64,000 nt of DNA, taken from contig CAWHHT010000005.1 of NCBI GenBank assembly GCA_963829205.1, positions 8,082 to 72,081 on the forward strand, given 5' to 3'. Position 1 is the first letter of the stretch; each line of letters opens with the position of its first letter. The DNA comes from an uncultured Thermoleophilia bacterium (GTDB taxonomy: Bacteria > Actinomycetota > Thermoleophilia > UBA2241). Of this stretch, positions 1,493-30,977 are shown one piece after another. The notes below the pieces were generated by a model. It searched no databases. It was not told the DNA's origin and saw nothing but the letters and a program-made list of their open reading frames with translations. Position numbers and translations under genes: made by a program.

Positions 1493-2798
1493 ATGAACGA
1501 CTTCGAGCTCCCATCTTCGCACGCCGACCGTGAAGGCGACGCCGGCGGCGTCGTCACCGGCGGCGTCGACATCGGCCCAGGTGATCCCCGCGGCGTTGAT
1601 ACCGGTCGCGGCGATCCCGGCGGCGGCCGCCCGCGGCCGCGCCGCCGGAGACGTTTCGCGCGGACGCTCGCCGGCGCCCTACTGGCGGCTGCTCTGGCGG
1701 CCACGCTCGTCGCGATCTTCGTCGTCCACGTCGGCAGCTCGTCCACGCCCGGCGTCGCCGGGCTCACCGGGCTCCAGGACTTCCTTCAGCGTGGTCCAAG
1801 CGACCCAGCCGGCGCCACCGGCGAGCACCTCCGCCATCACCGCGCGGGTCGACCCCGGCCTCGTCAACATCAGCGTCGCCAACGGCTCCACAGGTGCGGC
1901 GGGGGAGGCGACGGGGATGGTGCTGACGCCCTCCGGAGTGGTGCTCACCAACAACCACGTCATCCAGGGAGCGACGCAGATCCGCGCCACCGACGTCGGC
2001 AACGGCAAGACCTATGACGCCACCGTCGTCGGGTACGACCGCGGCGGCGACGTGGCGGTGATCCAGCTTCAGGGGGCGAGCGGCCTGCGGACCGTCGCCC
2101 TCGGCGATTCTTCCACGGTGGCCATCGCCAACAAGGTCATCGCGCTGGGCAACGCCGGCGGCGGAGGCGGCACGCCTCGCGTGGCGCAGGGAGCAGTCAC
2201 GGCGCTCCAGCAGACGATCACGGCGAGCGACCTCGGCGGCGGCAACGCCGAGCGGCTCGACGGCCTGATCCAGACGGACGCCGCGGTGCTGCCCGGGGAT
2301 TCGGGCGGGCCGCTGGTCAACGACGGCGGGCAGGTGGTCGGGATGGACGCCGCCGCCTCCTCGGCCAACACGCCCTTCATCGCCCAGACGTCCACTCCGC
2401 AGTCGTTCGCCATCCCCATCGACTCAGCGCTCGCGATCGCGAAGCAGATCGAGGCGGGGACGAGCTCGGCCACGGTGCACGTCGGGCCGACCGGCTTCCT
2501 CGGCGTCGAGGTCGTGCCTTCCTCGCAGTTCGGTGGCGGACCCGCGAGCGGGGCCGGGACGCAGGCCCAGGGTGCCGTCGTCGGCGGCACGCTCCCCGGC
2601 TACCCTGCCGCGCGCATCGGTCTCGCGCAGGGCGACGTCATCACCGCGGTCGACGGGCAGACTGTGGCCTCGGCAACGGCGCTCACCGACCTGCTCTCCG
2701 CACATCACCCGGGGGACTCGGTCCAGCTCCAGTGGACCGACACGTCGGGGCAGACGCACGCCGCGACCGTCAAGCTCGCCAGCGGTCCCGCCGCATGA
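1493..2798 (+). CDS. HtrA/DegP-like trypsin-fold serine protease with C-terminal PDZ; reading frame broken once near 1750-1830
   Basis: The N-terminal part (ATG 1493, membrane anchor LAGALLAAALAATLVAIFVV) lies in the frame of ORF 1298..2017. The catalytic part (TNNHVI, GDSGGPL, PDZ GDVITAVDG) lies in the frame of ORF 1530..2798. Confidence 0.75.
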
Positions 2799-2916
2799 CG
2801 GCCTTGGCGGAGAGGCAACGCCGGCTGAGTTCCACGGCGCCGCGATAGGGCACATTCTCTCCGTATCGAGAACGGTGCGAGCCCGAAACCGGCGCGCACC
2901 GAGCAAGGAGGACACG

Positions 2917-3231
2917 ATGTTCGCACGGGTCATGTCGGGTGACGTGACGCCCGACAAGGTGGAGACCTTCGTCGGCATGATTCGCGACCAGGTGATCCCG
3001 AGAGCGAAGGGCCTCGACGGCTTCAAGGGTGGCTACTGGCTCGCCGACCGCAGCTCCGGCAAGGTACTAGGTGTGACGTTGTACGAGAGCGAGGAGACGC
3101 TGAAAGCGAGCGCCGAGCAGGCCGACAAGATCCGGGAGGAAGCGAGTCGCGGTGCCGGGCTGCCGATCCCGTCGTTCCAGGAGTTCGAGGTCGTAGCGAG
3201 CGCGGAAATAGCCGACCGGCTCGCCGCATAG
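2917..3231 (+). CDS. Small ABM/Dabb-fold (antibiotic biosynthesis monooxygenase-like) protein
   Basis: AAGGAGGA RBS lies 6 nt before ATG 2917. The roughly 104-aa alpha+beta protein reads MFARVMSGDVTPDKVETFVG...YESEETLKAS. The upstream part of the long ORF 2533..3231 is R/P-rich noise. Confidence 0.55.
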   Translation: MFARVMSGDVTPDKVETFVGMIRDQVIPRAKGLDGFKGGYWLADRSSGKVLGVTLYESEETLKASAEQADKIREEASRGAGLPIPSFQEFEVVASAEIADRLAA

Positions 3232-3267
3232 ACGCCGCCCTGCGCGCTCCGGCGAGCGTTCACGAGG

Positions 3268-3310
3268 AGGGACGGAGCGGTGGCTGCCGACATGGCGCCG
3301 CTCCGTCCCT
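3268..3310 (+). terminator. 13-bp stem hairpin (AGGGACGGAGCGG...CCGCTCCGTCCCT) after the ABM-like gene
   Basis: Inverted repeat read directly. It is extended by flanking TCACGA/TCGTGA. Confidence 0.45.
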
Positions 3311-3365
3311 TCGTGAGCGCTCACACCATGCCGCAGGCGGAGGCGCCTGAACAAGGAGGCACACG

Positions 3366-3779
3366 ATGACAAACGAAGCTGCAGCGGAACCGGTGCCCGA
3401 GATGAGGCTCGAGCTGGTGCCGGTGCCCGTCTCCGACGTCGACCGAGCCAAGGCGTTCTACCTGAAGGCCGGGTTCGGCAACCTGCACGACACGCAGGTG
3501 ACCGACGCCATGCGGGTGGTCCAGTTCACGCCGCCCGGTTCCTCGTGCGCGATCGTCTTCGGCACGGGCATGGGCCCGCTCACCGACATGCAGCCCGGCT
3601 CGGTCAAGGGGCTGCACCTGGTCGTGAAGGACATCGCCGAGGCTCGCGGAGCGCTCGTCAGGCGAGGCGTGGACGTCGAAGAGGTCACGGACATCGGGGG
3701 CGTCAAATACGCGTGGTTCAGCGACCCCGACGGGAACCTGTGGGCGCTGCAGGAGTGGCCGGCCAGCTACGAAGGGTAG
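3366..3779 (+). CDS. VOC/glyoxalase-bleomycin resistance family protein
   Basis: 137 aa. MRLELVPVPVSDVDRAKAFY...DPDGNLW is typical of the VOC fold. An AAGGAGG RBS lies upstream. Confidence 0.75.
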   Translation: MTNEAAAEPVPEMRLELVPVPVSDVDRAKAFYLKAGFGNLHDTQVTDAMRVVQFTPPGSSCAIVFGTGMGPLTDMQPGSVKGLHLVVKDIAEARGALVRRGVDVEEVTDIGGVKYAWFSDPDGNLWALQEWPASYEG

Positions 3780-3815
3780 CGGGGCGCGGCCAGCCGCGCG
3801 CCGTCCGCATCGCGC

Positions 3816-4364
3816 CTACGAGCGCTCTGCCGGCACGTACTCGAGGATCACGATGCCGGAGTCGAAGACCTCGTGGTGCGTCAGCGTGAGGTCGGTCTGG
3901 CCGGCGTCGTCCGCAAAGAGGCGGGCGCCCTTGCCGAGCACGATCGGGTGCACCATGAAGCGGAACAGGTCGATGCGGTCAGCGCGCCTGAGGGCGTTGA
4001 ACAGCTGTGCGCTGCCGGAGAGCAGCAAGTCCTGGCCGGGCTGTGCTCTCAACGTGTCGATCTCGGCCTCGAGCTCGCCTGAGAGGACGATGGAGCCCGT
4101 CCACGCCGCGTCTTCGAGCGTCGACGAGACGACGTACTTGGGCATGCTGTTCATCTTCACGCCGAACTCGCCGGTGCCTTCCATGGTCGGCCAGGCGGCG
4201 GCGAAACCCTCGTAGGTCCGCCGCCCGAGCAGCAGCGCGTCAGTCGCCTCCAGCTCCTGCGCCTTGAAGCGCGCGGCCTGCTCGGTGAAGAAGGGGAACG
4301 ACCAGGTGCCCGGCTCTTCGAAGACGCCGTCAAGCGAAAGGTACTCGGTGGCTACGAGTCTCAT
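3816..4364 (-). CDS. Dihydrofolate reductase-like (RibD C-terminal domain) family protein
   Basis: MRLVATEYLSLDGVFEEPG...LLLGRRTYE...DLLLSGSAQL...DRIDLFRFMVHPIVLGKG. A GGAGG RBS precedes ATG at 4364. The ORF-track start at 4457 is unlikely. Confidence 0.7.
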   Translation of the reverse strand: MRLVATEYLSLDGVFEEPGTWSFPFFTEQAARFKAQELEATDALLLGRRTYEGFAAAWPTMEGTGEFGVKMNSMPKYVVSSTLEDAAWTGSIVLSGELEAEIDTLRAQPGQDLLLSGSAQLFNALRRADRIDLFRFMVHPIVLGKGARLFADDAGQTDLTLTHHEVFDSGIVILEYVPAERS

Positions 4365-4550
4365 GTCAGTGCCTCCGTCCTCGTCTCGTGCTCGGGTGAC
4401 GCAGCCGCCTGCCGGCGCGGGCGGACCTTGTGGAGTCCGCATACCCGTGGTCGCCACGGCCGACGCCTTCGCGCGCTCATCGCTCTGGCGTTACGCCGCG
4501 CCGTGCGCCGGGGAATCCATTCTGTGCGGCCATCGCGGTCGCAGAGCGTC

Positions 4551-4580
4551 CAACAGGAAGTGAACCAACAGGAAGTGAAC
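4551..4580 (+). repeat. Perfect 15-bp tandem direct repeat (CAACAGGAAGTGAAC x2) ending 4 nt before the ku start codon
   Basis: Read directly: caacaggaagtgaac caacaggaagtgaac gatc ATG. Confidence 0.9.
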
Positions 4581-4584
4581 GATC

Positions 4585-5409
4585 ATGGCGCGGCCACTCT
4601 GGAAGGGAAGCATCAGCTTCGGGCTCGTCACCATCCCCGTGCACGTCTACTCGGCGACTCGGGCGCGCGCCTTGCGCTTTCGTCAGCTCGATCGCCACGA
4701 CAGGTCCCCGATACGCGAACAACGCATCAACGAGAACACGGGCAAGGAGGTGCTCTGGGAAGACATCGTCAAGGGCTATGAGTACGAGAAGGACTCGTTC
4801 GTGATCCTCGAGCCCGAGGATTTCGAGCGCGCCAACGTGAAGGCGACCGAGACCATCGAGATCATGCAGGCCGTTCCCCGGGACGCGCTGGCGCCCGAGT
4901 ACCTCGAGACGCCGCACTTCATCGTGCCGACCAAGGCGGGCGTGAAGGCCTACCATCTCCTGCGCGAGACGCTGCGGCGCACCGACCGGCTGGCGATCGC
5001 GACCATCGTGATGCGCGGCCGCCAGCATCTGGCGGCGCTGATCCCGCACGAGGACGTGATGATGCTCGAGCTGCTGCGCTTCGCGTACGAGCTCAAGTCG
5101 GTCTCCGACCTGGACCTCGACCACGACATCTCGGCGCCCGACCCGAGGCCTCAGGAAGTCGAGATGGCGGAGCAGCTCGTCGCGGCGCTCGACGCGCCTT
5201 GGGACCCGAAGCAGTATCGCGACGACTACCGCGACGACCTGCTGGCGTTCATCGAGCGCAAGGCCAAGAGCGGCGACAAGCCTGTGCGCAGCGCGGGGCG
5301 CAAGGAGCGCGGCGAGACTGCCGAGGTCGTGGACATCATGGAGCTGCTCAAGCAGAGCGTGGGCGAGGCGCGCAAGCCCAGCCGCTCGCGCCAGCGCCGC
5401 GCGAGCTGA
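4585..5409 (+). CDS. ku: Non-homologous end joining protein Ku
   Basis: MARPLWKGSISFGLVTIPVHVYSAT is the canonical bacterial Ku N-terminus. It has a basic C-terminal tail and lies adjacent to ligD. Confidence 0.9.
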   Translation: MARPLWKGSISFGLVTIPVHVYSATRARALRFRQLDRHDRSPIREQRINENTGKEVLWEDIVKGYEYEKDSFVILEPEDFERANVKATETIEIMQAVPRDALAPEYLETPHFIVPTKAGVKAYHLLRETLRRTDRLAIATIVMRGRQHLAALIPHEDVMMLELLRFAYELKSVSDLDLDHDISAPDPRPQEVEMAEQLVAALDAPWDPKQYRDDYRDDLLAFIERKAKSGDKPVRSAGRKERGETAEVVDIMELLKQSVGEARKPSRSRQRRAS

Positions 5410-16882: not shown

Positions 16883-18820
16883 TTACTTCTGCGGGATGTA
16901 CTTGCCGCGCGCCGTGTAGCTGGTGTGCAGCAGCTCGTGGCTCTTGTGCCCGCACGGACCGTCGGTGAGGAACTCCTCGTAGGTCTTGGCCACCGCCGGG
17001 TTCTCGTAGGACTTGCGCACGCTGTACGCCTTGTCCTCGGAGTAGATGGCCTTGGCGCGGGCGGCGCGGATCTCGGCGTTGGTCGGGATCGGCTGGCCAC
17101 CGCCGCCCAGGCAGCCGCCCGGGCAGGCCATGAACTCGATGAAGTGGCATTCGCTGAACTTGCCGCCGGCCTTGATGTCTTCCATGACCTTCTTGGCGTT
17201 GGCGGTGCCGTGAGCCACGGCGACCTTGACGGTGACGCCGTCGAGCCAGTTCCAGTCCGGGACGAGGTGGGCGAGGATCGCCGGCACCGGCCCGACCTTG
17301 GGGATCGTGATCTCGGCGTAGCGCACGCCCTCGAAGCCGCGCACGGGGATGATGTCGCCGTGCTCGTAGATGCTCTCGACCTTCTCGCCGGTGACCAGCT
17401 CGATGACGGTCCGCAGGGCACTCTCCATCACGCCGCCGGTGGCGCCGAAGATCACGCCGGAGCCGGTGGCCGTGCCGAACGGGTCGTCGAAGTCGCTCTT
17501 GGGCAGGCTCGGCACATGCAGGCCGGCCTCCTTGAACATCTTGCCGAGCTCGCGCGTGGTGATGCCGAAGTCGACGTCCTTGAAGCCCGAGTCGTGCATC
17601 TCGGGCCGGTTGCACTCGAACTTCTTGGCCGAGCAGGGCATGAGCGCGCAGCTCACGATGCTGGCCGGGTCCACGCCCAGCTTCTCGGCGTAGTAGGTCT
17701 TGATCAACGCGCCGAACATCTGTTGCGGGCTCTTGGCGGACGAGGCGTTGGGCAGGTACTCGGGGTAGAAGTGCTCGAGGTACTTGACCCAGCCAGGCGA
17801 GCAGCTCGTGAACTGCGGCAGGGCCACGTCCTTGTCCCCTTCGACGAGGGCGCCATAGAGCCGCTTGATGAGCTCGGTGCCCTCCTCGATGATCGTGAGG
17901 TCGGCGGTGAAGTTGGTGTCGAAGACACGGTCGAAGCCGGCGCGGCGCAGGGCCGTGTTCATCTCGAACGTCACCGGCGTGCCGGGCTCGAGGCCAAAGA
18001 GCTCGCCCATCGCGGCGCGTGGCGCCGGCGCGGTCTGGATGACGACGTGCTTCTCTGGGTCGTCAAGAGCGGCCCAGACGGCGTCGGTCTCATCCTTGGC
18101 GTACAGGGCGCCGGTGGGGCAGCGGTTGACGCACTGGCCGCAGTTGATGCACACGACGTTGCCGAGCGGCAGGTCTTCAAAGGTGGCGATCTGCGTTTCG
18201 GCGCTGCGGTTGATGGCCTCGAGCACGCCCACTTCCTGCAGGTCGATGCAGGTGCGCACGCAGCGGCGGCAGCGGATGCACTTGTCCATGTCGCGCATCA
18301 CGGAGTAGCTGGAGAAATCGGGCTCGAACTGGGACTCGTCCGGGTGCCCGAAGGTGAAGTCGGTGATGCCGTATTCCTCGGCCAGCGTCTGCAGCTCGCA
18401 GTTGCCGTTGCGCACGCAGCTGTAGCACTCGCCGTAGTGCTCGCTGAGGAGCAGCTCGAGCACGTGGCGGCGCGCCTTGCGCACCTTGCGCGTGTGCGTG
18501 TTCACGGTCAGCGTGTTGGTGACCGGGTAGACGCAGGCGGCCTGCAGCGTGCGCTGGCCCTCGAGCTCGACCACGCACATGCGGCACACGCCGGCGACCT
18601 TGAGGTCCGGGTGGTTGCAGAGCGTGGGGATGTCGACGCCCACCGCCTTGGCGGCGTCGAGGATGGTCATGCCGAACGGCACTCTGGTCTCGATCCCGTC
18701 GATGGTGACGGACACGAGCGCGCCGATGGCCTCGGGGTTGTCGGAGACCGGTACCGTGCTCCCGACCTGGCTGGGCGGGATGCGCGGGGCTTTCTCGTCG
18801 TTTCTCGGCTGGTCGCTCAT
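16883..18820 (-). CDS. hydA: [FeFe] hydrogenase catalytic subunit HydA (NuoG-like N-terminus, group A NuoEF-linked type), copy 1, intact
   Basis: Start MSDQPRN at 18820. The 2Fe-2S N-domain reads VTIDGIETRV...LCNHP...GVCRMCVVE. There are 2x 4Fe-4S motifs. H-cluster motifs are FTSCSPGW, MPCSAKKFE and FMACPGGCLGGGGQP. Confidence 0.9.
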   Translation of the reverse strand: MSDQPRNDEKAPRIPPSQVGSTVPVSDNPEAIGALVSVTIDGIETRVPFGMTILDAAKAVGVDIPTLCNHPDLKVAGVCRMCVVELEGQRTLQAACVYPVTNTLTVNTHTRKVRKARRHVLELLLSEHYGECYSCVRNGNCELQTLAEEYGITDFTFGHPDESQFEPDFSSYSVMRDMDKCIRCRRCVRTCIDLQEVGVLEAINRSAETQIATFEDLPLGNVVCINCGQCVNRCPTGALYAKDETDAVWAALDDPEKHVVIQTAPAPRAAMGELFGLEPGTPVTFEMNTALRRAGFDRVFDTNFTADLTIIEEGTELIKRLYGALVEGDKDVALPQFTSCSPGWVKYLEHFYPEYLPNASSAKSPQQMFGALIKTYYAEKLGVDPASIVSCALMPCSAKKFECNRPEMHDSGFKDVDFGITTRELGKMFKEAGLHVPSLPKSDFDDPFGTATGSGVIFGATGGVMESALRTVIELVTGEKVESIYEHGDIIPVRGFEGVRYAEITIPKVGPVPAILAHLVPDWNWLDGVTVKVAVAHGTANAKKVMEDIKAGGKFSECHFIEFMACPGGCLGGGGQPIPTNAEIRAARAKAIYSEDKAYSVRKSYENPAVAKTYEEFLTDGPCGHKSHELLHTSYTARGKYIPQK

Positions 18821-25135: not shown

Positions 25136-26912
25136 TCAGACGCGGTCGTGCTCGAAGTAGTGCGTGTGCAGCAGGTGGTGCGAGATCTCGCCGCACGGCG
25201 CCCCGAGGTACTCGTCGTACAGGGCGCAGACGGCCGCGTTCTCGTGCGACTTGCGCACCTCGCGGCCCTCGTCCTCGCGGTAGATCGCGCGCCATGCGCG
25301 CCTTGCGCACCTCGTTGGTGGTGAAGCGCGGCTGGCCGCCGCCGCCGATGCACCCGCCGGGGCAGGTCATGACCTCGACGAAGTGGCACTCGATCTCGCC
25401 GCTCTTGACCCGGTCGATGAGCTTCTGCGCGTTGCCGAGGCCGTGGGCCACGCCGACCTTGAGGTCGGCGCCTTCGAGGAACGCCCAGTCGCCCTTGGCG
25501 CCCTCGACCTTGACGGTCGCCATCTTGACGCCTTCGAGACCGACGATGGGCTCGACGTGCAGGTTGGGGAACGGGAACGGCGTCTCGGTGACGATCTCCC
25601 ACACGGTGCGCAGGGCCGCCTCCATGACGCCGCCGGTGTTGGCGAAGATGTCGGCGGCGCCGGTGCTGATGCCGAGCGGCGCGTCCATCTGCTCGTCGTG
25701 CAGGCCGCGGAAGTCGATGCCGGCCTGCTTGATCAGGGCGCCGAGCTCGCGCGTCGTGAGCACGATGTCGACGTCGCGCACGCCGCTGTCGTTCATCTCC
25801 GGCCGCGCCGCCTCGTACTTCTTGGCGGTGCAGGGCATGACCGAGACGACGACCATGTCCTCCGGCTTCACGCCGATCTTCTCGGCGTAGTAGGTCTTGG
25901 CGATCGCCCCGAACATCTGCTGCGGGCTCTTGCACGGTGCTGAGGTTGTCGAGCATGTCCGGGTTGAAGTGCTCCATGTAGTTGATCCAGCCCGGGGAGC
26001 AGCTGGAGAACTGCGGCAGACGCCACCGTCTCGCCGTCCACGAGGGCCTTCTTGAGCCGCACCAGCAGCTCGGTGCCCTCCTCCATGATGGTGAGGTCGG
26101 CGGTGAAGTCGGTGTCGAACACCGCGTCGAAGCCGAGGCGGCGGAGGGCGGCGACCATCTTGCCGGTCACCAGGGTGCCGGGCGCGTAGTCGAAGCACTC
26201 GCCGAGGGCGGCGCGGATGGCAGGAGCGGTCTGCACGATCACCGTCTTGGTGGGATCCTCGAGCGCGTCCCAGACCTCGTCGATCTGGTTGCGTTCCTGG
26301 ATCGCGCCCACGGGGCAGACGGCGGCGCACTGGCCGCACTGCACGCAGACGACGTCGCTGAGGTTCTGCCGCGAAGGCCGGGCCGATGAGCGTGGCGAAG
26401 CCGCGGCCCTGGGCGAAGAGGCCGCCCACTTGCTGGACCTCGTTGCAGACGGTGACGCAGCGGCGGCAGGAGATGCACTTGCCGGTGTCGCGCACGAGCG
26501 CCGGCGTGCTGTCGTCGATCATCTTGAACGTCTTCTCGCCCTGGTAGCGTAGCTCGCCGATGCCCAGGTCGAGAGCGAGGCTCTTGAGCTCGCAGTCGGC
26601 GGAGCGGCCGCAGACCTGGCAGTCGCCGTCGTGCTCCGAGAGGAGCAGTTCGACGACCATCTGGCGGCCGTCGCGCACCTTGCCGGTATTGGTCTTCACG
26701 ACCATGCCGTCGGTGGCCGGCTGGCTGCACGAGGCGACCAGCGTGCGGGCGCCTTCCACCTCGACGAGGCAGACGCGGCAGGCGCCGATGGACTGGACTT
26801 CGTCGAGGTAGCAGAGGGTCGGGATCTTCACGCCGGCCTGACGGGCGGCTTGAAGGACCGTAGTGCCCTCCGGGACCTCGACCTTGATGTCGTCAATGGT
26901 GAGGGTTGGCAT
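25136..26912 (-). pseudogene. hydA: [FeFe] hydrogenase catalytic subunit HydA, copy 2; conserved sequence recoverable only across 4 frame changes
   Basis: [16 protein letters not shown]...ACRVCLVEVEG, then CVQCGQCAAVCP (second frame). Then LPQFSSCSPGWINYMEHF (third frame). Then CKSPQQMF...MPCTAKKYE...VMTCPGGCIGGGGQP. Then IYREDEGREVRKSHENAAV...HTHYFEHDRV stop at 25136. Breaks lie near 26370, 26020, 25935 and 25290. Confidence 0.8.
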
Positions 26913-26930: not shown

Positions 26931-29900
26931 TTACGAGCAGTACTTGCCGTAGTCGCAGCGCAGGCAGCGCCGTGCCTCGGCGATGGCTGTCTGTGCGGCC
27001 CAGCTGAGCTCGACCTCGTCGAAGTTGGAGACGCGCTGACCCACCGGCAGCTCCTCGACCGCATGGCGGTCGACAAGCTCCGGGTCGGCGTCGGGATCGA
27101 ATGACACGGGCGGCTCGATGTCGCGGCGCCAGAAGGCGTGGTTGGCGCCGGTCAGGTACTCGTCCATGCCCGCCGCCGCGCGCTCGCCGGCGCCGATGGC
27201 CTCGACCACCGAAGACGGGCCGGTGGTGGCGTCGCCGCCGGCGAACACCCACTCGGTCGACGTCTTGCCCGTGTCGGGGTCGGCGGAGAAGTAGCCCCAG
27301 CGGTTGAGCTCGATGGGCGTGCCGTCCACGATCGCCGGCGCGTCCAGGGACTGGCCGATGGCGGCGATCACGGTGTCGGCCTCGACCACGAAGTCGGGGT
27401 TGTGGCCGGCCACGGGGCGGCGACGACCACTCTTGTCGTAGTCGCCGAGCGCCATCTCCTTGCAGCGCACGCCGGTGACCTTGCCGCTCGCGTCGCGGAC
27501 GATCTCCTCCGGGGCCACGAGGGTGAGGATCTCGATGCCCTCGAGGTCGGCGGCGTCGATCTCCTCGCCCCACGCCGGCATCTGCGCGCGCGTGCGGCGG
27601 TAGAGGATCTTGACCGACTCGGCGCCGAGGCGCAGGGCGGTGCGGGCGGCGTCGATGGCCGCGTTGCCGCCGCCGATGACGGCGACGTTCTTGCCCACCT
27701 CGCCGGTGCCGCTGCACGTTGTACTGCTTGAGGAAGGAGAGCCCGTCGTACACGCCGGGGCCGTCCTCGCCGGGCACGCCGATCTTCATGCCCTGCGGGG
27801 CGCCGACACCGACGAACACGGTCTCGTAGCCCTCGTCCTTGAGGCTCTGCAGGGTGAAGTCGCGGCCGAGCGCCTTGCCGTACTCGAACGTGACGCCCAT
27901 GGCCTCGATCATCTTGACTTCGCGCTCGAGCTCCGGCCGCGGCAGGCGGTAGGCCGGGATGGCCTGCACGAGCATGCCGCCGGCCTTGGGCTCGGCCTCG
28001 AACACGACCGGCTTGTAGCCGAGGCGCGCCAGGAAGTAGGCGGCCGAGAGGCCGGCCGGCCCGGAGCCGACGACGGCGACCTTGCGGGCGGCGTTCTCGG
28101 CGTTCTCCTGGATCTCGGGCAGCTGCGGGTCCTGCTCCTGCTCCACCATGAAGCGCTTGACGTGGCGGATGGCGAGGGCCCCGTCGAGGCCGGCGCGCAT
28201 GCACTTGCTCTCGCAGGGATGGAAGCAGACGCGGGCGCAGATGCTGGCCAGCGGGTTGCGCTCGCGGTGCAGCTTGAGGGCCTCGTCGTACCGCTGCTCG
28301 CCGACGAGGCTCACGAAGCCGGGGATGTTGACGCTCGCCGGGCACGCGTTGGAGCAGCGCGCCTTGAACAGCGTGGCGCAGACGCCGGCCTCGCAGTACT
28401 TGTCCTTGATGTGGGCCTCGTACTCGTGACGGAAGTGGCGGATCGTCGAGAGCACGGGGTTGGGGGCCGTCTGGCCGAGGCCGCAGAGTGCGGTCTGGCT
28501 GATGGACTCGCCGAGGGCGATGAGGCGTTCGATGTCGCCTTCCTCGCCCTCGCCCTTGCAGATGCGGTCGACGATCTCGAGCATGCGCTTGGTGCCGACG
28601 CGGCAGGGCGGGCACTTGCCGCAGCTCTCTTCCTGGGTGAACTCGAGGAAGAACCTGGCGATGTCGACCATGCAGGTGTCCTCGTCCATGACGATGACGC
28701 CGCCGGAGCCCATGATGGCGCCCAGTTCCTGCAGGGTGGCGTAGTCGACCGGGACGTTGAGGTGCTGCTTGGGGATGCAGCCGCCGGACGGTCCGCCGAG
28801 CTGCGCGGCCTTGAAGGCCTTGCCGCCCGGGATGCCGCCGCCGATCTCGTAGATGAGCTCGCCGAGCTGCATGCCGATCGGCACCTCGACGAGGCCGGTG
28901 TGCTGCACGTTGCCGCCGAGCGCGAACACCTTGGTGCCCTTGCTCTTCTCGGTGCCCGTGCTGGCGTACCACTCGGCGCCCTTGAGGATGATCGGGGCGA
29001 TGTTGGCGAAGGTCTCGACGTTGTTGAGCACGCTGGGCTTGCCCCAGAGGCCCGAGACCGCCGGGAACGGCGGGCGCGGGCGCGGCTCGCCGCGGTGGCC
29101 CTCGATCGACGTCATGAGGGCCGTCTCCTCGCCGCAGACGAAGGCGCCCGAGCCCATGCGGATCTCGAGGTCGAAGTCGAAGCCGCTGCCCATGATGTCC
29201 TTGCCGAGCAGGCCGTACTCGCGCGCCTGCCCGAGCGGCGTGCTCGAGGCGCTCGACCGCGAGCGGATACTCGGCGCGCACGTAGACGTAGCCCTGGTGC
29301 GCGCCGATCGCGAAGGCGCCGATGACCATGCCCTCGATGAGCGAGTGCGGGTCGCCTTCGAGCACCGAGCGGTCCATGAACGCGCCCGGGTCGCCTTCGT
29401 CGGCGTTGCAGAGGATGTACTTGGTCTCGTTGTCCTGCTGCTGCGCGAAGCGCCACTTCATCCCGGTGGGGAAGCCGGCGCCGCCGCGGCCGCGCAGGCC
29501 GCTGGCGAGGACCTCGTCGACGACCGCTTCGGGCGTCATCGCGGTGAGCACCTTGGCGAGCGCCTGGTAGCCCTCGCGGGCGATGTACTCGTCGATCTTG
29601 AGCGGGTCGATGATGCCGGAGTTGCGCAGCACGATCTTCACCTGACGGTTGAAGAACGGGATGTCGCTCATCTCGGCCTGCGTCTTCTCGGTGCCGGGCG
29701 CGTGGCTCACGAGGCGCTCGACGATGCGCCCCTTGAGGAGGTGCTCCTCGACGATCTCGGGGACGTCGGCGAGCTGGACCTTCTGGTAGAACACGCCGTC
29801 CGGGTAGACGAGGGCGACCGGGCCCTGGACGCACGGTCCGAGGCAGCCGGTCTCGATGACCTCGACTTCGTCGGCGAGGTCGCGCGCCTTGAGCTCGGCC

Positions 29901-29986
29901 CGGACGGCCTCGCTCAGCTCGAGCGCTCCGGAGGCGATGCACCCGCCGCCGGTGCAGATCAGGAAGTGCGTTCTCACATCAGCCAT
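26931..29986 (-). pseudogene. NuoF-like flavoprotein fused to a GltD/NADPH-oxidoreductase-like module (about 1018 aa if repaired); 2 frame breaks
   Basis: Thioredoxin-like 2Fe-2S N-domain (HFLICTGGGC...GCLGPC). NuoF core ([37 protein letters not shown]). GltD part (CSNACP...[51 protein letters not shown]). Breaks lie near 29235 and 27710. Confidence 0.8.
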
Positions 29987-30003: not shown

Positions 30004-30375
30004 TCAGGTCTTGATCAGGTAGGCGTCGACGGGAGTGCCGCCCACGAGGTGATTGCGGACGATGGTGTGCACCTTCTCCCGGTCGAGCAGGCCGTACCGG
30101 TAGATGGTCCCGTCGGCGAGCGTGACGGTGGCCATGGGCTCTTCCTCGCAGAGACCGGCGCAGCCGGTCTGATGCAGGCTCACCGAGGTCACGCCGGCGT
30201 CCGACATCTCGGTCATGAACGCGGCGACCACGTCGCGCGCGCCGGCGGCGATGCCGCAGGTGCCCATGTGGACGGTGACCTGGGACTCCTTGCGTCCCTG
30301 GCGCAGGTCGATGTCGGCCTTGGCCTTCTCGGCCATCGCCAGCAGCTGATCGGGGCTGGTGATCTTGTCGGCCAT
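30004..30375 (-). CDS. Thioredoxin-like [2Fe-2S] ferredoxin (HndB-like small subunit)
   Basis: MADKITSPDQL...VTVHMGTCGIAAGA...QTGCAGLCEEEP; intact. Confidence 0.7.
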   Translation of the reverse strand: MADKITSPDQLLAMAEKAKADIDLRQGRKESQVTVHMGTCGIAAGARDVVAAFMTEMSDAGVTSVSLHQTGCAGLCEEEPMATVTLADGTIYRYGLLDREKVHTIVRNHLVGGTPVDAYLIKT

Positions 30376-30376
30376 G

Positions 30377-30977
30377 TCAGGCGCTCCTCGGGCTGCCCGC
30401 GAATTGCTCCGCAGGCTGGTCAGCCGAACGCCGCTCACTGCGTCCGCTCGTTTCCGCGAGCACGGGCTCCTCGGCGTACTGCGCCAGGATCTCGTGCACG
30501 CGCTTGGGCTTGACGCGGTGGTGGACGTCGTCGTCCACGGTGATGACGGGCGCGAGGCCGCAGGCGCCGAAGCAGCGTGCGATCTCGAGCGAGAACAGCG
30601 CGGTCCTCGGTGGTGCCGCCGATGTCGATGCCGAGCTGCTTCTTGAAGGCGTCGAGCACCTGGACGCCGCCGCGCACGTAACAGGCGGTCCCCATGCAGA
30701 TGCGGATCAGGTGCTTGCCGCGCGGGACGGTCGTGAAGAACGAGTAGAAGCCGACCACGCCGGCGACCTCGCTGTAGGGCTTGCCCAGCTCTCGGGCGAT
30801 GTGCTTGAGGGCGACCTCAGGCAGGTACCCGAAGATGCCCTGGGCGAGCTGCAGCACCGGGATGAGCGCCCCGGGCTTGCCTCTGTACTCGGCGATCACC
30901 GCGTCGAGGCGCGCGAGGAGCTCTTCCTCCGTCGGTTCCTCGTCGCAGCACGTGCACGCCTTGACCTCTTCACTCAT
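30377..30977 (-). CDS. NuoE-like [2Fe-2S] subunit, copy 2; one frame break near 30600
   Basis: IPVLQLAQ...ICMGTACYVRG...GGTTEDR, then in another frame LFSLEIARCFGACGLAPVITVDDD. The repaired reading ends at a TGA 1 nt before the ATG of the next gene. Confidence 0.8.

Follow-up and report, generated by a model that had tools for sequence, protein, structure and literature searches.

We analysed a window of 64,000 nucleotides from an uncultured Thermoleophilia bacterium (assembly GCA_963829205.1, contig CAWHHT010000005.1, positions 8,082 to 72,081 of the forward strand), and all coordinates given here are those of the window. On the minus strand, the DNA from 29986 to 26931 is coding throughout and carries hydB::gltD, a gene in which a NuoF-type hydrogenase flavoprotein (HydB, or BfuB in the nomenclature of the Bfu family) runs on into a module of the GltD type. 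Open reading frame translations and a plot of third-position G+C content gave three successive frames (29986..29237, 29235..27715 and 27713..26931) that together encode one protein of 1017 residues. Third-position G+C was 0.95-1.00 within each frame, the first extending from 29986 to about 29240, the second from there to about 27715 and the third to 26931. The coordinates and strand assigned in the initial annotation, together with the motifs quoted there (LICTGGGC and RRCLRC among them), were all present in the frame translations; the length, which had been put at about 1018 residues, is 1017 in the repaired reading. The features of the gene, with the extra bases that separate its frames, are as follows.

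26931..29986, minus strand: the whole hydB::gltD gene, 1017 residues plus stop after removal of two extra bases
29702..29986, minus strand: N-terminal thioredoxin-like [2Fe-2S] domain, the B5 site (PF01257; Cys11, Cys16, Cys48 and Cys52)
28996..29509, minus strand: Complex1_51K domain binding flavin mononucleotide (FMN) and NAD(H) (PF01512; GRGGAGFPTG and CGEETAL; aligned to 7t2r_B and 7q4v_B)
28780..28926, minus strand: SLBB/ubiquitin-like domain (PF10531)
28411..28665, minus strand: four-helix bundle with the B1 [4Fe-4S] cluster (ESCGKCPPC...LCGLG; PF10589, E 7e-35)
28378..28413, minus strand: hinge H525-x5-C531-x4-C536, from alignments to HydB chains; with Cys438, the B2/Zn site of Bfu enzymes
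28129..28404, minus strand: GltD-type cluster domain Fer4_20, in place of B3/B4 (PF14691; colinear with 9bov_A and 8oh5_C)
27186..28083, minus strand: flavin adenine dinucleotide (FAD) domain (VVGSGPAGL) and NADPH domain of the GltD/NfnL type (PF07992; structure alignments)
26934..27017, minus strand: C-terminal segment NFDEV...EARRCLRC, which supplies the last two Cys of the GltD-type clusters
29236, minus strand: first extra base, frame break 1 (context HA/g/LGQAREYG; from tblastn, DNA alignment and metagenome contigs X2, X4 and X6)
27711-27715, minus strand: second extra base, frame break 2, one base within these 5 nucleotides (context YNVQ/c/GTGEVGKN; placed at 27712 by DNA alignment)

In Pfam searches the first of the three pieces held 2Fe-2S_thioredx and the start of Complex1_51K, the second held the remainder of Complex1_51K, SLBB, NADH_4Fe-4S, Fer4_20 and the first Rossmann fold, and the third held the latter half of Pyr_redox_2. 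The annotation by hidden Markov models that had been proposed for the gene thus matched every one of these domains. The junction between the NuoF and GltD parts lies wholly within the middle frame and contains no stop, so it leaves no place for a stop codon and ribosome-binding site between two genes, and intact homologues of 1017 residues exist. The single-gene assignment of the initial annotation is therefore upheld. The alternative, that separate nuoF/hydB and gltD genes were wrongly joined or that the assembly is chimeric here, has a negligible probability and was rejected. It is at odds with the single open frame across the junction and with the intact 1017-residue fused proteins found on many contigs. 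It is equally at odds with a search of species genomes using a 281-residue query spanning the junction, from which the best 80 loci were kept: most of these loci, all from other species, matched the query over all or nearly all of its length. The 62 full-length homologues to which the conservation counts below refer were drawn from the same 80 loci.

Residues 1-542 constitute a HydB/BfuB flavoprotein. This part aligned end to end with HydB of the A. mobile NiFe enzyme (7t2r_B, E 6e-242), and likewise with the HydB chains 7q4v_B, 8a6t_B and 7p5h_B, with StnB (8oh5_B) and with NfnB (9bov_B and 9n5u_B). The FMN/NAD(H) domain, the SLBB domain and the B1 helix bundle of the BfuB/HydB core are all present, and the N-terminal B5 domain and the hinge B2/Zn ligands (Cys438, His525, Cys531 and Cys536) are present and conserved. 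The B5 cysteines were retained in 58-61 of the 62 homologues, whereas the FMN/NADH motifs, B1 Cys455, Cys458, Cys461 and Cys501, and the hinge residues were retained in all 62; frame break 1 falls within Complex1_51K. The glutamate of CGEETAL is typical of NADH-specific NuoF proteins. The role of the hinge as a B2/Zn site in Bfu enzymes is taken from PMC12018979. Homology to the solved HydB chains, which are 584-630 residues long, includes the hinge His and Cys and ends at residue 540-542, which confirms the earlier observation that the usual HydB tail with two [4Fe-4S] clusters is absent. The C-terminal ferredoxin-like B3/B4 domain (two CX2CX2CX3CP motifs) was not found in the gene, in which Fer4_20 is the sole Fer4-type Pfam match.

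The tail position is occupied by a complete and conserved GltD-type module with its Fe-S cysteines and two Rossmann sites, as had been described. Residues 541-1012 are colinear with the NADPH module of NfnA (9bov_A residues 101-568, E 1.6e-110) and with StnC (8oh5_C), and are more distant from NfnL (4ylf_B), GltD and dihydropyrimidine dehydrogenase. Both Rossmann motifs aligned with the solved NfnA, StnC and NfnL structures. Cysteines for two [4Fe-4S] clusters (eight in all), GxGxxG for FAD, and GxGxxA plus YRR for NADPH, the hallmarks of the GltD/NfnL family, are present and were kept in 60-62 of the homologues. Taken separately, the cysteines of the cluster domain at 28129..28404 were retained in 60-62, the FAD and NADPH motifs, on either side of frame break 2, in 61-62 and the cysteines of the C-terminal RCLxC segment in 61. 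The YRR motif is typical of NADPH-specific GltD/NfnL proteins. Judged by motifs, the protein has two separate nicotinamide-nucleotide sites, an NAD(H)/FMN site and an FAD/NADP(H) site, in agreement with the initial annotation. Over the whole protein, B5, B1, the hinge, the eight GltD-type cysteines, the FMN/NADH motifs, the FAD GxGxxG and the NADPH GGGN and YRR motifs were nearly all invariant among the homologues, and the near-invariance of these cofactor ligands indicates that both nucleotide sites are under selection.

The arrangement of the module bears on its origin. The C-terminal RCLxC segment (query residues 499-532) aligned to residues 10-43 of 4ylf_B and is colinear with 9bov_A. Because this segment is C-terminal, as in NfnA and StnC, and N-terminal in NfnL and GltD, the permutation suggests an Nfn-Bfu-type gene, rather than nfnB or gltD, as the source of the module. 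The NCBIfam gltD/gltA models TIGR01318, TIGR01317 and TIGR01316 all scored below their cut-offs, and no GltB was found among the operon genes here or in relatives. Identification as a glutamate synthase or a classical NfnAB was rejected on the partners and the model cut-offs.

When an intact homologue was used as a tblastn query, residues 1-250, 251-757 and 758 onward were found on the three frames, with one unread base between each pair. Aligned at the DNA level with a relative's intact gene, to which it is 88% identical in nucleotides, the stretch of 3056 nucleotides showed only two indels, single bases inserted at 29236 and 27712. Removal of both bases gives 1017 codons, the length of most close homologues, and the intact homologues have 1017-1022 residues at 92-95% identity. 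Public metagenome contigs from different studies that are 97-99% alike and cover break 1 (X2, X4 and X6) omit one letter at 29236/29237; at break 2 (27711/27715) one letter is omitted in the X2 and X4 contigs, and the X6 contig that spans the site has one gap. The metagenome run that represents this DNA best, X1, has no contig across either break. A seven-state codon-position model was applied to the whole assembly (3.39 Mb, 13 contigs) and detected no fewer than 618 changes of frame that involve no stop codon; 83% of them were of the insertion type. The rate of such switches is 1.6-2.0 per 10 kb on every large contig. Their distribution is patchy: many 20-kb bins have 8-16 switches, and the two bins holding the hydB::gltD region have 8 each. 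The indels that blastn listed for the wider region could not be counted reliably, because paralogous matches and compensating gap pairs were among them. The intact relatives, the contigs without the extra base and the stop-less switches found genome-wide together indicate that the two frame breaks are assembly errors and that the gene is intact in nature.

A true pseudogene of this strain, with two real frameshifts marking decay of the second hydrogenase operon, is very improbable in our assessment. The hydCDBA operon has roughly seven frame breaks in 5.8 kb, against an average of about 1.8 per 10 kb in the genome; this higher density would fit decay, as would the missing coverage of both breaks in X1. 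Set against this, third-position G+C is near 1.0 in every coding frame, all ligand residues are retained and near-identical contigs from other metagenomes cover the breaks without extra bases. Moreover, the uncompensated breaks read off the alignments are single-base insertions, the type that also prevails, patchily, over the whole genome. Decay specific to the operon was not supported, given that break density is patchy throughout the genome. Programmed ribosomal frameshifting was also rejected, since the relatives and the covering metagenome contigs have no extra bases and the breaks occur genome-wide. For any gene of this genome that looks broken, an assembly error is the first thing to suspect. 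The initial annotation had not linked its repaired reading to errors of this genome-wide kind.

The fusion had been regarded as unusual, which proved an overstatement once the proposed database search for its taxonomic spread was made. In the species-genome collection the junction has relatives in at least 595 stretches, and the best 80 loci, nearly all of which match the junction query end to end, come from more than 15 phyla. Cultured carriers among these 80 are Pontiella sulfatireligans F21 and Pelotomaculum terephthalicicum JT. Among long proteins, a search gave at least 8000 matches, the best 120 of which all have NuoF and GltD domains and about 1000-1060 residues (one is a partial sequence of 974); sources named among these 120 are Thermoleophilia, Actinobacteria, Polyangiaceae, Planctomycetota and Phycisphaerae. 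Within the genus of the window, the full junction was present at 86% identity or more in 12 of the 24 other genomes sampled. In relatives G027 and G023 the orthologue is accompanied by a further copy of the fused gene that has diverged to 49-54% identity across the junction.

The usual partners of the fused protein are conserved. A full-length HydA is encoded directly downstream in 51 of the 64 informative loci, and HydC is encoded upstream in nearly all loci with enough upstream DNA. At other loci the partner differs. In a Syntrophobacteraceae metagenome-assembled genome (locus L087, 7849-11642) the fused BfuB stands beside a NuoG-like subunit and the small and large subunits of a [NiFe]-hydrogenase, and in an Anaerolineales metagenome-assembled genome (locus L046, 7709-12032) it stands beside a small Fe-S BfuA together with HdrA/MvhD-like and FrhB-like proteins. 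The fused flavoprotein is thus a general BfuB variant that is not confined to hydrogenases. Several relatives within the genus (for example G016, locus L088 at 2165-5000) also encode a protein of 637 residues with NADH_4Fe-4S, Fer4_20 and Pyr_redox_2 and no FMN domain. This protein is 38-39% identical across the junction, is followed by a formate-dehydrogenase-like subunit and was not found in the genome of the window. The junction of helix bundle and GltD module hence also exists without the flavin core.

In the window the gene order is rex, a sensor cassette, hydC, a hydD-like gene of 123 residues, hydB::gltD and hydA. The neighbours of hydB::gltD within the operon are the following.

30380..30977, minus strand: hydC, NuoE-like, with the C1 [2Fe-2S] domain (PF01257, E 7e-31; tblastn with the 199-residue HydC of a relative; one frame break at about 30599)
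30004..30375, minus strand: hydD-like small subunit of 123 residues (tblastn; operon of relatives)
25136..26912, minus strand: hydA, catalytic subunit of an M3-type [FeFe]-hydrogenase, 591 residues (Fe_hyd_lg_C, Fer2_4 and NADH-G_4Fe-4S_3; tblastn)

The adjacent partners expected of a Bfu complex, BfuC (hydC) and BfuA (hydA), are thus present, in an order common to the relatives. A relative at 92% identity, represented by three independent records, has the identical operon order with every gene intact, and two of these records go on to a second hydCBA operon, whose NuoF has 398 residues. The hydA gene has about four frame breaks; its P2 and P3 motifs are present and its P1 motif is SSCSPGW. 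The P1 motif, as SSCSPGW or TSCSPGW, was read at window position 26019 in hydA of operon 2 and at 17821 in hydA of operon 1. At the 51 loci with a full HydA after the fused HydB, the second Cys of the canonical TSCCPxW was Ser in 51 of 55 P1 motifs. The solved T. kivui HydA1, HDCR HydA2 and DdH have CC at P1. The second Cys of P1 is a ligand of the [4Fe-4S]H cluster in CpI. The genome as a whole has eight NuoF-like (Complex1_51K) loci, counting the two on the contig of the window (C5), with five on contig C12 and one on C6, and the organism seems rich in NuoF-type soluble redox complexes. The occurrence of Ser at the second Cys position of P1 has been noted as common (PMC11406978).

The architecture is already on record. 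A 2024 survey of Hydrogenedentota genomes (mSystems 2024, PMC11406978) described a 'sub-type I' BfuB in which B3/B4 is replaced by a DPD_II domain (2x[4Fe-4S]) and an extra C-terminal FAD/NAD(P)-binding domain, with the cluster order BfuABDC and with relatives in Spirochaetota, Pseudomonadota, Planctomycetota, Verrucomicrobiota, Kiritimatiellota and Thermodesulfobacteriota. Its authors speculate that the FAD forms another bifurcation centre and state that biochemical proof is still missing; Syntrophus gentianae is a cultured carrier named there. The window protein, with PF14691 and PF07992 directly after the hinge, conforms to this definition. It shares with sub-type I the order of N-terminal 2Fe-2S, FMN, SLBB, 4Fe-4S helix bundle, DPD_II and FAD/NAD(P) domains, and the clusters are alike in the gene order C-D-B-A and in a HydA of the M3a type with Ser after the conserved P1 Cys. 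It differs from the published examples (Hydrogenedentota and six other phyla) in being an actinobacterial copy of the Thermoleophilia type that stands behind a Rex-headed sensor cassette. The comparison with Hydrogenedentota was made with a locus from the genome collection (L021) and gave 69% identity across the junction. We conclude from these sequence features that the window gene is an actinobacterial member of a published and widespread kind. PMC11406978 was the only report that literature searches returned for an earlier description or published biochemistry of a NuoF-GltD hydrogenase fusion; the fusion is not treated in PMC9304861, which covers the Bfu family, in PMC6085437, PMC5736913, PMC10327494 or PMC7325909, or in the review PMC5861303.

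Comparison with the solved enzymes shows what sets this kind apart. HydB of the HydABC enzymes from A. woodii (7q4v), T. kivui (8a6t) and T. maritima (7p5h) and of the A. mobile NiFe-HydABCSL enzyme (7t2r) resembles residues 1-542 (E 6e-242 to 1.4e-182), with the same B5, FMN/NADH, B1 and hinge ligands and with HydC and HydA partners. However, these enzymes keep the ferredoxin-docking B3/B4 domain, whereas the window protein has an FAD/NADPH module of about 475 residues instead. The best structural relatives of residues 541-1012, NfnA (9bov_A, 9n5u_A) and StnC (8oh5_C), share the RCLxC segment after the NADPH domain and the cluster, FAD and NADPH motifs. In the Nfn-Bfu/Stn complexes the module is carried by the BfuA-type subunit and feeds a 'third substrate' path, while BfuB keeps B3/B4. 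In the window, by contrast, it is carried by BfuB at the place of B3/B4, and BfuA is a true hydrogenase with Fe_hyd_lg_C and the P2 and P3 motifs, so that the complex does not belong with the Nfn-Bfu/Stn transhydrogenases. The NfnSL large subunit (4ylf_B, 5jca_L) and GltD (2vdc_G, 6s6s_G) have the same fold family and the same two [4Fe-4S] clusters, FAD and NADPH sites (E 1.7e-95 and 7e-66). The window protein differs from them in having neither an NfnS nor a GltB partner, and in NfnL and GltD the RCLxC segment is N-terminal. With no GltB in the operon and gltD scores below the cut-offs, the gene does not qualify as a glutamate synthase GltBD component.

It had also been said that the fusion combines features that classification schemes keep apart, those of glutamate-synthase-linked and NuoEF-linked group A enzymes. 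The fusion does not escape classification, since the HydDB rule assigns A2 only if GltD is found without NuoF and A3 whenever NuoF is found (PMC5037454), and so already accommodates the combination. The NuoF domain is present here and places the enzyme in group A3, with the qualification that the rule inspects the protein downstream of hydA and the flavoprotein lies upstream.

The low-potential electrons of Bfu enzymes travel from the mobile C1 cluster via B3/B4 to ferredoxin, which is bound at the ferredoxin-like domain of BfuB, as seen in NfnABC by cryo-electron microscopy (PMC12018979). In the solved HydB chains the 45-90 residues after the hinge form this B3/B4 domain. What the sequences show is this set of domains, with ligands and partners that are conserved, and a replacement of the ferredoxin-docking domain that is placed exactly at the hinge. 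The gene hydB::gltD encodes the HydB/BfuB flavoprotein of a soluble [FeFe]-hydrogenase with four subunits, hydC-hydD-hydB-hydA. We propose that this enzyme would link H2 to NAD(H) as well as NADP(H) and would not use ferredoxin, a proposal that we judge to have about an even chance of being right. Somewhat more tentatively, the NADPH/FAD module may have taken over the ferredoxin arm, with NADH and NADPH confurcated to H2, or H2 bifurcated to NAD+ and NADP+, at the FMN/B1/C1 site. Electrons would move between the H-cluster and this site through the iron-sulfur chain of HydA. NAD(H) would react at the FMN and NADP(H) at the FAD, and the two GltD-type clusters would wire the FAD to the C1/hinge region. 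The arm that normally runs from C1 via B3/B4 to ferredoxin would instead run via the GltD-type clusters to FAD and NADP(H), and the complex would couple H2 with NAD(H) and NADP(H) with no ferredoxin involved. The suggestion made in the initial annotation, NADH/NADPH dual specificity or an Nfn-like confurcation, is a plausible and reasonable one that comes close to the speculation in PMC11406978.

The direction most likely to be taken is H2 production from NADH and NADPH at low H2 pressure, that is, confurcation. By our own estimate NADH (about -280 mV in vivo) and NADPH (about -380 mV) would average about -330 mV, which should allow H2 up to roughly 100 Pa, as against a few Pa for NADH alone.

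Several points weigh against this ferredoxin-independent scheme. The electron path and the substrates are drawn only from homology and domain position, and no purified or assayed enzyme with the NuoF-GltD BfuB architecture was found in the literature. The energetic gain of confurcating NADH with NADPH is modest by our own calculation, and coupling of H2 to NAD+ and NADP+ at high H2 pressure would need no bifurcation. By analogy with NfnSL, where the homologous subunit passes electrons over its two [4Fe-4S] clusters to ferredoxin, the GltD-type clusters could still serve ferredoxin here. The genome encodes four POR_N (pyruvate:ferredoxin-oxidoreductase-type) domains, from which reduced ferredoxin is probably available.

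These last points belong to an alternative in which ferredoxin is still a substrate, the GltD-type [4Fe-4S] pair standing in for B3/B4 and the FAD/NADP(H) site forming a further branch. We regard this as unlikely, yet as the more serious of the two functional alternatives. The enzyme would in that case amount to a hydrogenase that contains an Nfn-like transhydrogenase and connects H2, NAD, NADP and ferredoxin, and the FAD might be a second bifurcating flavin. NfnL (4ylf_B, 5jca_L) does use its FAD for bifurcation and passes electrons over two clusters to ferredoxin, as summarised in PMC12018979, and two bifurcation centres have been raised in PMC11406978. Besides the POR_N matches, it would also fit that neither hydrogenase operon of the window has a canonical B3/B4 domain. 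Against this reading, the module is most like, and colinear with, the NfnA/StnC type, where it is a mere NADPH entry and ferredoxin is served at B3/B4. Furthermore, Pfam gave no NfnS equivalent next to the FAD in the gene, and the six further NuoF-like genes of the genome might serve ferredoxin-linked complexes.

The second functional alternative is an enzyme without coupling, in which the FMN, for NADH, and the FAD, for NADPH, would be independent entry or exit points on one Fe-S wire to the H-cluster. Both nucleotide sites are conserved in the 62 homologues, and at high H2 pressure H2 can reduce either NAD+ or NADP+ without coupling. Non-bifurcating HydABC enzymes exist, that of S. wolfei being an example cited in PMC5861303. 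We nevertheless consider this alternative improbable, because the bifurcation apparatus is strictly conserved in full, from B5 and B1 to the hinge and to HydC and its mobile C1 domain, whereas B3, B4 and B5 have all been lost from the 'sub-type II' enzymes, which do not bifurcate (PMC11406978).

The H2 economy of anoxic soils, sediments and digesters is governed by multimeric [FeFe]-hydrogenases, and how the Bfu family splits electron pairs is still debated. For this window the value of the analysis lies mainly in annotation: the gene is intact in nature, the assembly is rich in errors and the architecture is on record. More broadly, a variant with an NADP(H)-reducing flavin module at the ferredoxin docking place is present in hundreds of species, syntrophs and cultured strains among them, that belong to more than 15 phyla. 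If the ferredoxin-free coupling of H2 to NADH and NADPH is correct, it would be a reaction undescribed for any hydrogenase and a natural test case for electron steering by the Bfu 'flavobicluster', and metabolic models that assume ferredoxin-dependent bifurcation would be wrong for this enzyme.

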